In this document: positions 26,519 through 31,127 of the stretch, piece after piece
How the letters are laid out: every line of letters begins with the position of its first letter
How positions within the stretch are numbered: position 1 is the first letter of the stretch
Assembly (NCBI RefSeq): GCF_050320075.1
Contig: NZ_CP190018.1
Length of the DNA: 64,000 bases
Origin: Escherichia coli
GTDB lineage: Bacteria; Pseudomonadota; Gammaproteobacteria; Enterobacterales; Enterobacteriaceae
Reading direction: 5' to 3' (one strand)
Made by a program: the position numbers and the translations under genes
Notes under the pieces: model-generated
Database searches by the model: none
The model's input: the letters and a program-made list of their open reading frames with translations, nothing else
Told to the model about the DNA's origin: nothing

Positions 26519-27730
26519 TCAGTGTGATTCGCTATGAGCGACTTCGGCATTGCCATGATTCTGGCAGTCTACTTCTTCACAACGTTGCATCATGTAACCC
26601 AGAGCAACCAGCACTACTGTTGATAACATCACGCTGGTGGTGGTGAGCAATGGCGTGCTGATACTGATAAGCCAGGAAACTACCAGACTTGCGAGGAAGC
26701 ACAGACCCAGTTGTAGAGTGTTCTGCAACGCTGCGGCGCGACCAGTTGCATGTGGGAAGGGACGCAGCGCCTGGGCGACAACAATCGGGTAGATCGCGCC
26801 ATTGGCAATCGCCATCACACAGAATGGGATCAGGATTTCGACTAGCGACACATGGCTAATGAAGCCCGCAGCCCAGGTCGCAATGACGCTGACAGCAAAC
26901 AGTACCAGCAACCACGGTAATAACTGCTTGCCTTGCCATTTCTGCAGTGCGGCGCGACAGCCATAACCACCAATCAGAAACGCGATAGTTTGCGGGACAT
27001 AACTTAAACCAATAACTGCCGGGCTGTAGCCCATTTCACTAAGGATGAACGGTGAGCCGGTCAGCCATGCAAAAAAACTGGCTGAACAGGCCGCATATAT
27101 CAGCACGTTGCCGCGATAGGTTTTAGAACGTAGCAGGTCGGTAAAGGTCAGACCATCCTGACTATTGTTACGGGCCTTCGTCGTGGGTTTGAGCCAGAAA
27201 ATAGGCAGAATCAGCACCACGGTAATGGCAAACAGGGTGGCGAAAATCGCCTGCCAGGAAAAATGGACCAGCAGCCAGCTTCCTAACAGAGGAGCCAGTG
27301 CCGGAGATAGACCCACCAGCGGCATGATGGTCGCAAAAATACGGTTAACTTTCTGTGAAGGATAATAATCCGTCACTAACGCTTGCCAGATAACCGCCGC
27401 GGCGCAGACACCCACAGCCTGTACAAAACGCAATACCAGCAGCGTAGCGGCGTTTTCTACCCACAGCATCCCCAGACTACCTAACGCAAAAATTGTCAGG
27501 CCGATTAATAATACCGGTTTACGACCATAACGGTCGGAGAGCGGCCCCCACAGAAGCTGGGCTGCGGCAAAACCGGCAAGGAACAGACTAAGGCTGGCAC
27601 TGACAGCAGACGCAGGCGTTTGCAGGTCGGCCTGTATGGCGGCGAAAGCAGGCAGATACATATCGGTTGCCAGAAAACCGAGTACGCTCAAACCCGCCAG
27701 CCAGACTAAAAATCTTTTCCCAGGTTGCAT
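26519..27730 (-). CDS. punC: MFS transporter PunC (YdhC), 403 aa
   Basis: 403-aa 12-TM MFS protein divergent from a LysR regulator. Confidence 0.88.
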
Positions 27731-27842
27731 GTATATTCTCTAAATCTCTCAATTAAACACCGCCGCAAAGTGTAGGGAGTGAAATTAGTGTTGTGAAACG
27801 GTAATATTTGATGACTGGTTTCAAAAATTTTGCAGGCAGACT

Positions 27843-28775
27843 ATGTGGTCAGAATATTCACTCGAAGTTGTTGATGCGGTAGCGCGTAATGGTAGTTTTA
27901 GCGCTGCGGCACAGGAGTTGCATCGCGTTCCTTCTGCGGTCAGCTATACCGTGCGTCAGCTGGAAGAGTGGCTGGCGGTGCCGCTGTTTGAACGACGTCA
28001 CCGTGATGTGGAACTGACCGCTGCCGGGGCGTGGTTTCTCAAAGAAGGGCGCTCTGTTGTCAAAAAAATGCAGATCACCCGGCAGCAATGTCAGCAGATA
28101 GCGAACGGCTGGCGCGGTCAGTTAGCTATCGCAGTGGATAATATTGTCAGGCCGGAACGTACACGGCAGATGATCGTTGATTTTTATCGCCATTTTGATG
28201 ATGTCGAACTCCTTGTCTTTCAGGAAGTGTTCAACGGTGTCTGGGATGCGCTTTCCGACGGGCGCGTGGAACTGGCGATTGGCGCAACACGCGCGATTCC
28301 GGTAGGCGGTCGTTATGCCTTCCGCGATATGGGGATGCTAAGCTGGAGTTGCGTTGTTGCCAGTCACCACCCGCTGGCGTTGATGGATGGCCCGTTCAGC
28401 GATGATACGTTGCGCAACTGGCCGTCGTTGGTGCGCGAAGACACCTCGCGAACGCTACCTAAACGTATTACCTGGTTGCTGGATAACCAAAAAAGACTTG
28501 TCGTGCCTGACTGGGAATCATCGGCAACCTGTATCTCTGCAGGATTATGCATAGGGATGGTGCCAACACATTTCGCCAAACCGTGGCTTAATGAGGGGAA
28601 GTGGGTGGCACTAGAACTGGAAAACCCCTTCCCGGATTCGGCATGTTGTCTGACATGGCAGCAAAATGATATGTCGCCTGCGTTAACCTGGTTGCTTGAG
28701 TATCTCGGCGATAGTGAGACGCTGAATAAGGAGTGGCTGCGGGAGCCGGAAGAGACTCCCGCAACGGGTGATTAA
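27843..28775 (+). CDS. punR: LysR-family transcriptional regulator PunR (YdhB), 310 aa
   Basis: N-terminal [36 protein letters not shown]; 3' end overlaps purR stop by 4 nt. Confidence 0.88.
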
Positions 28776-29797
28776 CGACGATAGTCGCGGAACGGGCCGT
28801 CAGCCACGGAGCGGCGTTCAATCAACCGCGGATGCACTTCAATGGATTGCGGTTCTTCGCGTTTATTGACGATACGATCCAACAGCATATTGAACGCAGT
28901 TTCGCCCAGCGAATCTTTTGGCTGATGGATCGTGGTCAGCGCCGGCGTAAAATAGCGGGCGTTGCGCACGTTATCATACCCGATCAGCGAAACATCCTGC
29001 GGGACGCGCAGACCCATTTCATCAGCAGCACAAAGTGCGCCCATTGCCATGATATCGCCACCACAGAAGACGGCAGTAGGGCGATGCGGCTGCGACAGGA
29101 TTTGCTGCATGGCGCGATAACCGGATTCAGGTTCAAAGTCACCCTGCACAATCCAGCTTTCCGGCACTTTGATCATCGCTTCTTCCATCGCCTTCATAAA
29201 ACCGGCAAGGCGGCCTGCGCCGGTGTTACGTTCCAGTGGGCCAGGGATAACGCCGATTTCGCGGTGACCGCGTTCAATCAGATAACGCCCGGCCATGTAG
29301 CCGCCTTCGAACGCGTTATCAATGACCGCATCGGTGAAGTCAGCTTTTGCTTCACCCCAGTCCATCACCACCATCGGGATATGGCGATACTCTTCCAGCA
29401 TCGCCAGCAACGGCTCTGGGTACTCAGAACACATCACCAGCAGACCATCGACGCGTTTTTGCGCCATCATCGACAGATAAGCCCGCTGTTTCTCAAGATT
29501 GTTCCACGCATTGCCCAGAATCAGGGTGTAACCTTTCTGGAAGCAATTTTTTTCAACCGCTTCAATGATCTCGGCAAAATAGGCCGCTTCGCTGCTGGTC
29601 GCCAGCAAACCGATAGACTTGGTGTGGTTAACCTTCAGACTACGCGCCACCGCGCTAGGGGAGTAGTGTAATTCTTTGATCGCTGCCCACACGGCGTTGC
29701 GCGTTTCTTCAGCGACGAAACGTGTTTTGTTGATCACGTGTGACACAGTTGTAGTGGAAACGTTTGCTCGTTTCGCTACATCTTTTATTGTTGCCAT
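28772..29797 (-). CDS. purR: purine repressor PurR (LacI family), 341 aa
   Basis: [55 protein letters not shown]... Confidence 0.97.
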
Positions 29798-29841
29798 TCC
29801 ATTTCACTCCAGACCCTAACTTCAGCTCCTGCAAAATCGCA

Positions 29842-29857
29842 AGGTAAACGTTTGCCT
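29842..29857 (-). promoter_or_regulatory. PurR operator (PUR box) in the purR leader
   Basis: Minus strand reads AGGCAAACGTTTACCT, matching ANGCAAACGTTTNCNT; 45-60 bp upstream of purR ATG. Confidence 0.6.
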
Positions 29858-30066
29858 TTACACACCTTACGCACAACAAAAGTGTTGCGGTACGCCGGAA
29901 AAACGACACGGAGCGTCAGGAAGGGGTCAATGGCCAGTACGCAAATAGTGTAAGCGTGGAATTTTGGCCGATCTTGACGAAAAGGGGAAGTGGTAAAAAC
30001 ACTTATCATTATAAATGACGGGAGATTTTTTCATCACAGTGTGTAAAAATGCGTAATATCACTTTT

Positions 30067-30075
30067 TGTGTGGTA
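30067..30075. repeat. IS1 target-site duplication, left copy TGTGTGGTA
   Basis: Identical 9-mer directly flanks both ends of the element. Confidence 0.9.
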
Positions 30076-30098
30076 GGTGATGCTGCCAACTTACTGAT
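30076..30098. repeat. IS1 left terminal inverted repeat
   Basis: GGTGATGCTGCCAACTTACTGAT. Confidence 0.9.
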
Positions 30099-30130
30099 TT
30101 AGTGTATGATGGTGTTTTTGAGGTGCTCCA

Positions 30131-30406
30131 GTGGCTTCTGTTTCTATCAGCTGTCCCTCCTGTTCAGCTACTGACGGGGTGGTGCGTAACGGCAAAAGCA
30201 CCGCCGGACATCAGCGCTATCTCTGCTCTCACTGCCGTAAAACATGGCAACTGCAGTTCACTTACACCGCTTCTCAACCCGGTACGCACCAGAAAATCAT
30301 TGATATGGCCATGAATGGCGTTGGATGCCGGGCAACTGCCCGCATTATGGGCGTTGGCCTCAACACGATTTTCCGCCATTTAAAAAACTCAGGCCGCAGT
30401 CGGTAA
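30131..30406 (+). CDS. insA: IS1 InsA (DNA-binding inhibitor; N-terminal part of InsAB' transposase), 91 aa
   Basis: [43 protein letters not shown]... zinc-finger and HTH. Confidence 0.97.
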
Positions 30407-30828
30407 CCTCGCGCATACAGCCGGGCAGTGACGTCATCGTCTGCGCGGAAATGGACGAACAGTGGGGATACGTCGGGGCTAAATCGCGCCAGCGCTGGCT
30501 GTTTTACGCGTATGACAGGCTCCGGAAGACGGTTGTTGCGCACGTATTCGGTGAACGCACTATGGCGACGCTGGGGCGTCTTATGAGCCTGCTGTCACCC
30601 TTTGACGTGGTGATATGGATGACGGATGGCTGGCCGCTGTATGAATCCCGCCTGAAGGGAAAGCTGCACGTAATCAGCAAGCGATATACGCAGCGAATTG
30701 AGCGGCATAACCTGAATCTGAGGCAGCACCTGGCACGGCTGGGACGGAAGTCGCTGTCGTTCTCAAAATCGGTGGAGCTGCATGACAAAGTCATCGGGCA
30801 TTATCTGAACATAAAACACTATCAATAA
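30325..30828 (+). CDS. insB: IS1 InsB reading frame, 167 aa; expressed as InsAB' by -1 frameshift
   Basis: [16 protein letters not shown]...; overlaps insA in the -1 frame. Confidence 0.95.
30382..30388 (+). other. IS1 programmed -1 ribosomal frameshift slippery site AAAAAAC
   Basis: A6C heptamer in the insA/insB overlap, read directly. Confidence 0.85.
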
Positions 30829-30843
30829 GTTGGAGTCATTACC
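30821..30843. repeat. IS1 right terminal inverted repeat
   Basis: Reverse complement GGTAATGACTCCAACTTATTGAT is an imperfect match to the left repeat. Confidence 0.9.
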
Positions 30844-30852
30844 TGTGTGGTA
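30844..30852. repeat. IS1 target-site duplication, right copy TGTGTGGTA
   Basis: Identical to 30067-30075. Confidence 0.9.
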
Positions 30853-30872
30853 ATAAAAAAGGAGAAAACTTG

Positions 30873-30962
30873 ATGAGCACCGACCTTAAATTTTCACTGG
30901 TAACAACGATTATCGTCCTCGGTTTGATCGTGGCCGTGGGTTTGACTGCCGCGCTGCACTGA
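30873..30962 (+). CDS. ynhF: small hydrophobic protein YnhF, 29 aa
   Basis: ATG at 30873 preceded by GGAG; single-TM peptide MSTDLKFSLVTTIIVLGLIVAVGLTAALH; not in the ORF track because it is shorter than the track cut-off. Confidence 0.7.
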   Translation: MSTDLKFSLVTTIIVLGLIVAVGLTAALH

Positions 30963-31127
30963 TTTCCTCTCGAGGGAGCGCGTTCTCCCTCGCATCTCCT
31001 TCCTGTTTGTTAGCAAAATGGCAAAAGTGTTTTCTCTTTTTGTTATTTTCATTTTTTTGTGATTGCTGTCATGCTTTCGCCACTTTAATGAATATCGCGT
31101 AATGACGCGAAGAGGTGGAGATAAGGC

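Follow-up and report, generated by a model that had tools for sequence, protein, structure and literature searches.

In Escherichia coli, the genes of two regulators, the LysR-type punC activator PunR and the purine repressor PurR, run towards one another and finish on the same few nucleotides. The locus raises the question of where two transcripts with overlapping stop codons come to an end, and of whether such an arrangement couples the two regulators. We have followed this question in a stretch of 64,000 nucleotides of E. coli DNA (contig NZ_CP190018.1), which is referred to below as the window and whose numbering is used throughout.

Two regulator genes ending on one tetramer

The punR gene (ydhB) occupies positions 27843..28775 on the plus strand and encodes 310 amino acids; purR occupies positions 28772..29797 on the minus strand and encodes 341. 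Both were delimited by the list of open reading frames, the NCBIfam equivalog models and the RefSeq annotation, and the gene names, which had been proposed in a sequence-only reading of this DNA, are firm. PunR scored 528.9 bits against its equivalog (cut-off 345), with only residues 1–300 matched and the last 10 residues outside the 300-position family profile, and PurR scored 711.1 bits (cut-off 501) over its full length, residues 1–341. By these models and by the annotation, the pair consists of two genuine, convergent (tail-to-tail) protein-coding genes, with punC as the neighbouring divergent gene. Positions 28770-28777 read GATTAACG and contain the tetramer TTAA (28772-28775), in which the TAA of punR (28773-28775) overlaps that of purR (the complement of 28772-28774). 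The sequence and the ends of the reading frames agree on this point, so that the earlier statement of overlapping stops, with no intergenic DNA between the genes, was correct. A further open reading frame of 279 aa (28832-29671, plus strand) lies antisense across most of purR and resembles an ordinary shadow ORF.

The identical 4-nt overlap is annotated in the RefSeq record of strain CFSAN061763, with which the window shares 100% identity over 27700-29900, and the same overlap is found in the annotation of K-12 MG1655 (purR, 1737844..1738869; punR, 1738866..1739798). The region 27700-29900 was present in 5,424 of 5,426 complete genomes, and the 76-nt junction was preserved at an identity of at least 99% in 4,966 of 5,423 complete E. 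coli genomes and at 95–99% in the other 457. A real feature that is fixed in E. coli and already in the reference annotation, the overlap belongs to a class that has been well described. Lillo & Krakauer (2007, PMC2174442) gave [T/C]TA[A/G] as the minimal convergent stop overlap, to which the TTAA of purR and punR conforms, and tabulated the tetramers TTAA, CTAA, CTAG and TTAG. They counted 58 convergent overlaps in E. coli; 1,218 of 1,890 such overlaps from 58 species measured at least 5 nt, so about one third were shorter than that. The same authors noted that the terminators of overlapping convergent genes must sit in the coding sequence of the partner, and Rho-independent terminators were predicted within the partner's CDS at 21 of the 58 E. 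coli overlaps (PMC2174442).

The purR/punR overlap is an expected outcome and a member of this recognised, common class, with the same tetramer and two convergent genes ending on it. It shows no difference in kind from the other members, but adds a specific history, in which a stop codon probably left a hairpin loop, and in which the hairpin is conserved and the overlap is not. With dozens of convergent overlaps in E. coli, and with this one already annotated, its wider biological importance is slight. The locus does offer a tidy, compact illustration of the way in which convergent overlaps come about.

A conserved stem-loop in the last codons of punR

The earlier reading had further concluded that the shared stops leave no room for any terminator. 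This is wrong, because it presumes that a terminator can only lie between genes: within the last 14 codons of punR there is a stem-loop that is conserved and covaries, and at whose base the purR 3' end has been mapped. The GC-rich element spans 28736-28765 on the minus strand (5' arm, 28765-28754; loop, 28753-28748; 3' arm, 28747-28736), has 12 bp, begins 6 nt past the purR stop and lies wholly within punR codons 298–308. In this E. coli-type arrangement it is placed upstream of the punR stop (28773-28775) and not around it. Folded in the purR sense, the element reaches −23.2 kcal/mol (z = −6.2), and none of 200 dinucleotide shuffles was as stable. In E. coli the punR-sense fold is weaker (−15.9 to −17 kcal/mol, z = −1.8), since G-U pairs on one strand are A-C mismatches on the other. 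A search of 28400-29100 against Rfam gave no match at E ≤ 1.

Conservation was followed in a species set drawn from a PunR scan with one genome per species, which comprises the best 80 of 257 related loci, all from Enterobacteriaceae; both punR and purR are present in 78 of the 80, with 76 distinct junction sequences among them. Anchor-based folding of each sequence found the hairpin in all 76 distinct junctions of these best 80 loci, with z below −2 in every one (76/76), a median z of −4.3 and a mean energy of −20.5 kcal/mol. Several stem positions alternate between GC, AU, CG and UA among the 76 sequences from the best 80 of the 257 loci. Covariation was scored in a gapless, anchor-based subset of 33 sequences, picked by one loop-closing pair and thus carrying a mild selection bias. 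In this alignment, 88.8% of the cells were paired, compared with 79.7% in shuffles and 31–58% with slid partners; both sides had changed in 5 of 10 pairs, and the covariation score was 0.298 versus 0.133, a value reached by none of 500 shuffles of the 33 sequences. In a MAFFT alignment of the junctions RNAalifold recovered only 2 pairs, the 5' arms being out of register because the loop differs in length between lineages.

One of the arms lies in conserved punR codons; changes in it alter the protein (LREP, LRAP, LRTP or LRVP) and are matched by compensating changes in the opposite arm, which argues for selection on the structure and not on those residues. The two strands are close to symmetrical across the 78 sequences from the best 80 of the 257 loci: the fold is stronger in the purR sense in 37 and in the punR sense in 39, and G-U pairs number 49 versus 50, so that the covariation is neutral as to which transcript, or even whether the DNA, is the selected partner. 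The Escherichia hairpin favours the purR sense (−23.2 versus −15.9 kcal/mol). Of the two features of the junction it is the hairpin, and not the overlap, that is conserved.

The 3' end of the purR mRNA was taken from the Term-seq data of Adams et al. (2021, eLife, PMC7815308, supplementary file 1), in which it is listed as a ‘primary’ end and also flagged as ‘antisense ydhB’. In LB at OD 0.4 it was recorded at MG1655 position 1738907, with a read count of 1,560.89, and in M63 at the same OD it was recorded at 1738908 (889.975). The sequence column of that file holds the 3'-end nucleotide with 50 nt upstream (by our own count) and 10 nt downstream. Positions were transferred through the K-12 annotation, K-12 and the window being the same over this stretch, and 1738907 and 1738908 correspond to 28734 and 28733 on the minus strand (28733..28734). 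The purR 3' end thus falls 38–39 nt past the purR stop, 2–3 nt past the base of the stem and 5–6 nt past its 9-bp core, inside punR codons 298–310. An mRNA that includes its own stop codon cannot end before the overlap, and the earlier claim that each complete mRNA must enter the partner gene is borne out by this end, 38 nt beyond the purR stop and within punR.

The signal at the purR end is low (a count of about 1,560, compared with about 157,000 at ribC; PMC7815308). For ydhB (punR), no primary 3' end is listed in the three Term-seq conditions, and the table of Rho regions in supplementary file 2 of the same study has no entry for purR or ydhB, which lends Rho no support, although low expression could mask a signal (PMC7815308). 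Neither gene has an entry in the supplements of SMRT-Cappable-seq or of TERMITe.

Probable origin of the overlap by stop-codon movement

The state of the junction was determined by scanning for the in-frame stop from the start of each tblastn alignment in the best 80 of the 257 loci. Among the 78 species with both genes, the 4-nt overlap (−4) was found in 27, all with a PunR of 310 aa. Gaps of +1, +3 or +5 nt were found in 5 species (PunR of 307–309 aa), spacers of +14 to +22 nt in 45 (303 aa) and a spacer of +45 nt in one (303 aa); longer overlaps were found in none. PurR measures 341 aa in all 78 species of this set. With 51 of the 78 species lacking it, the overlap is not a conserved feature.

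In the species with a PunR of 303 aa the punR stop lies in the loop of the same hairpin, as in CGGGAGCCGG-AGTAA-CCGGCTCCCG. Codon 304 of the E. coli punR corresponds to the position of that stop in most other genera, and codons 304–310 (ETPATGD; 28752..28772, plus strand) are, by the comparison of the 78 species, a lineage-specific C-terminal extension, formed by the translated second arm of the hairpin and the spacer. Where the spacer measures 17 nt, the TAA of the TTAA follows the loop stop at a distance of 18 nt, which puts it in frame; loss of the loop stop then gives 303 + 1 + 6 = 310 residues, which is the length of PunR in all 27 overlapping species. The seven-residue tails are unrelated among lineages (ETPATGD, EAPAQQA, GLAPGED, ASVRKEA and others), and from their sequences they look like translated hairpin arm and spacer and not like a functional peptide.

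For the species with a spacer, loss of the loop stop was also simulated; it led to an overlap of −4 in 9 cases, a gap of 0–5 nt in 7 and an overlap of 39–972 nt in 30; with spacers of the Klebsiella type, punR would read through to overlap purR antisense by 636–972 nt. None of these long outcomes was seen in the 78 species from the best 80 of the 257 loci, and the complementary stop of the neighbour is thus the in-frame stop that is tolerated. Some Citrobacter have the 303-aa form with a 17-nt spacer and their relatives the 310-aa form, which suggests, as far as sequence comparison goes, that the state toggles between 303 and 310 by point mutation, with either loss or gain as its direction. 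The origin model of Lillo & Krakauer, based on stop-codon mutation, fits this toggle. The overlap probably arose when the punR stop left the hairpin loop for the first in-frame stop, which is that of purR on the other strand. More generally, a stop in a conserved hairpin loop may be lost or regained, upon which the complementary stop of the neighbour takes over and the added residues are those of the translated arm.

In the single species with a 45-nt spacer, Enterobacter sp. kpr-6, the purR stop and the conserved hairpin are separated by an additional hairpin (CCTGCAGCGTAAAACCGCAGG-like), and the junction can evidently accept added structure.

Barrier, terminator or interference

An intrinsic terminator has a U-rich tract of approximately 7–8 nt after its stem, and the RNA 3' end lies about 7–9 nt past the stem. 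The purR element resembles such a terminator in being a stable, GC-rich hairpin (12 bp, −23.2 kcal/mol, z = −6.2) shortly past the stop codon. It differs in what follows the stem: the stretch directly past it, CACUCCUU, has 3 U in 8 nt in place of a U-tract, this stretch varies with the punR codons among species, its U content is not conserved, and the Term-seq end lies 2–3 nt from the stem rather than 7–9 nt into a U-tract. The junction was not called in a scan for consensus promoters and terminators, which returned 5 terminator-like sites compared with 3.1 ± 2.2 in shuffles. On account of the U-poor tail, the position of the 3' end and the scan result, the site has no intrinsic-terminator signature.

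A sharp steady-state 3' end just past a stable, U-poor stem-loop is what a protective stem-loop would leave. Rho-dependent transcripts have been found with precise ends directly after stable, U-poor stem-loops, also within downstream coding regions, and these ends were attributed to trimming by PNPase and RNase II after diffuse termination downstream, in sequence that is mildly enriched in C over G (Dar & Sorek 2018, PMC6061677). The purR mRNA shares with these transcripts the sharp 3' end at a stable, U-poor stem-loop inside the coding sequence of the next gene. Downstream of the purR end (purR sense) the enrichment is only mild, with a C/G ratio of 1.57 over the first 75 nt, at about the 90th percentile of the window, which is weakly consistent with the model of Dar & Sorek. 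The likeness is one of 3'-end position, fold and sequence, whereas the table of Rho regions (PMC7815308) is without purR and ydhB.

Taking this together with the comparative data, we consider it probable that the TTAA overlap is an incidental by-product of stop-codon movement, and that the GC-rich stem-loop is the conserved element and sets the steady-state 3' end of purR. According to this scheme, most Enterobacteriaceae terminate punR translation in the hairpin loop, 14–22 nt before the stop of purR. Escherichia, most Citrobacter and several further lineages lack the loop stop, and, given a 17-nt spacer, the next in-frame stop of punR is the TAA that overlaps the purR stop on the other strand, by which punR would gain seven codons that translate the second arm of the hairpin. 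The hairpin, now within the last 14 codons of punR, would still set the purR 3' end 38 nt past the stop. RNA polymerase arriving from purR would pass the hairpin into antisense punR and would be released there diffusely, by Rho, by a weak stretch that contains U or, now and then, by a polymerase coming the other way, and 3'-5' exonucleases would then trim the purR RNA back to the hairpin, which would shield the mRNA. As the hairpin can form in both transcripts, it may serve punR likewise, or act as a bidirectional pause site or terminator.

The role of the hairpin is likely to be that of a U-poor 3'-end barrier or of a bidirectional terminator, and an exonuclease barrier that acts after release downstream is, in our ranking, the most likely of the mechanisms considered. 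The new content of these results is modest, namely that a covarying stem-loop marks the purR 3' end from inside punR, and the arrangement needs no special regulatory coupling of PurR and PunR.

Another possible explanation, to which we give a distinctly smaller chance, is that the hairpin belongs to the overlapping bidirectional terminators known from SEnd-seq, in which case the purR 3' end would come from termination and not from trimming. Hairpins in the nascent RNAs would pause polymerases arriving from either side, and head-on and trailing collisions would release them. Like the members of this class (Ju et al. 2019; bioRxiv 10.1101/2022.10.23.513370), the locus has a convergent pair, a hairpin that is common to both transcripts, and no canonical U-tract; unlike intrinsic terminators, they are hairpin-dependent and Rho-independent (bioRxiv 10.1101/2022.10.23.513370). 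The overall strand symmetry of the hairpin across species, the missing intrinsic-terminator U-tract and the lack of a listed Rho region for purR or ydhB (PMC7815308) all fit this explanation. However, the 3' end at purR/punR is mapped on one strand only, that of purR, the hairpin lies within a coding sequence and not between gene boundaries, and in E. coli the punR-sense hairpin falls well short of the purR-sense one in stability (−15.9 to −17 versus −23.2 kcal/mol). The low expression of purR and punR would, in addition, make collisions infrequent.

Comparably doubtful is a weak intrinsic (Rho-independent) terminator of purR, composed of the hairpin and the downstream CACUCCUUAUUC, the product of which would be nibbled back by a few nucleotides in vivo. 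It would agree with the strong GC-rich stem that begins 6 nt past the purR stop, with the 5 U found within 12 nt past the stem in E. coli (6–7 in many Citrobacter), and with the predicted Rho-independent terminators in the partner CDS at 21 of the 58 convergent overlaps of E. coli (PMC2174442). It is at odds with the 3' end, which lies 2–3 nt past the stem and not 7–9 nt into a U-tract, and with the fall of the U content to 3–4 in 16 nt in Klebsiella, Raoultella and Enterobacter, where the hairpin is kept; the site also failed the criteria of the terminator scan.

The reading that had been drawn from the overlap itself, namely that there is no terminator, that both polymerases read deep into the opposite gene, and that the resulting reciprocal transcriptional interference couples the purine repressor to the punC activator, appears very unlikely. 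In its favour, the convergent genes have no spacer, the purR RNA reaches at least 38 nt into punR, the consensus scan found no canonical terminator beyond chance on either strand (5 versus 3.1 ± 2.2), and PurR and PunR act on related pathways. Against it stand the conserved junction hairpin with its mapped, sharp purR 3' end, and the two thirds of related species (best 80 of 257 loci) that separate the genes yet keep the hairpin. As both are genes of regulators and the Term-seq count of purR is low, collisions between polymerases are presumably rare.

Expression data point the same way. The purR gene is autoregulated and should be derepressed, not lowered, under purine limitation. In purine-limited mutants the PunR protein rose more than 4-fold, and no other protein changed by more than 4-fold in all three mutants of the purine and histidine pathways (bioRxiv 10.1101/2023.06.22.546106); together with the expected derepression of purR, this is the opposite of simple mutual interference. 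Deletion of punR in MG1655 changed, by RNA-seq, the punC mRNA alone (PMC8376909). Papers on iModulons and on genetic interactions that mention ydhB contained nothing on the overlap. A PurR-box scan of the 64 kb (6 hits) recovered the known purR operator at 29842-29857, and near punR and punC it returned only two sites with 4 mismatches, 26980-26995 and 27610-27625, both inside punC and no better than sites elsewhere in the window; 27610-27625, the best PurR-box-like site close to punR, is no better than chance. Strong interference between purR and punR is thus unsupported, and what little evidence is at hand leans against it. The description of PunR as a regulator of purine efflux, which accompanied the interference claim, needs amendment too, since the primary paper describes PunC as an uptake transporter of purine nucleosides; a later preprint leaves a drug-efflux role of PunC open (bioRxiv 10.1101/2023.06.22.546106).

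Less probable still is that the output of PunR depends on 3'-end processing at the hairpin shared with purR, either through non-stop punR mRNA and its rescue by tmRNA or through mRNA pairing over at least 42 nt. If the punR mRNA were trimmed to the hairpin like that of purR, its stop codon would be lost, and the resulting non-stop message would call for tmRNA rescue. Were this true, the purine repressor and the activator of purine-nucleoside uptake would be linked post-transcriptionally, in the 310-aa and not in the 303-aa lineages. Least credible of all is that the two mRNA 3' ends pair as double-stranded RNA (at least 42 nt, 28734-28775) and are cut by RNase III, with cross-regulation of purR and punR as the result: by the mapped 3' end and the punR stop the mature purR RNA does overlap the coding end of punR, but a stable hairpin within the same RNA already occupies the region, and no change of purR mRNA was reported for the punR deletion (PMC8376909).

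The preferred reading, in which the hairpin sets the purR 3' end, has a practical side. Because of its position inside punR, the hairpin is probably removed in deletions of that gene, and the phenotypes of punR knockouts therefore need to be checked for effects on purR mRNA. The Keio design reportedly retains only the last 21 nt of a gene (28755-28775 in punR), and a deletion of this type would lose the loop and the purR-sense 3' arm.

Two observations were made at the other end of purR. The Term-seq data contain extra 3' ends at MG1655 1737833 and 1737952 (approximately 29808 and 29689 in the window, minus strand), both scored there as not Rho-dependent (PMC7815308). The first precedes the purR start codon by 11 nt and the second falls 108 nt within the gene; both are downstream of the PurR operator (29842-29857), and they could have come from processing or from premature termination in the autoregulated purR leader. 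Furthermore, a complete IS1 element of 768 bp (30076-30843; insA and insB ORFs at 30131-30406 and 30325-30828), flanked by the 9-bp direct repeat TGTGTGGTA (30067-30075 and 30844-30852), is inserted upstream of purR, 279 bp from its start. The otherwise identical strain CFSAN061763 lacks the element, and so, judging by annotated gene spacing, does K-12. The element sits about 20–30 bp upstream of the small gene cydH (ynhF; approximately 30871-30963) and may separate cydH from its own promoter.
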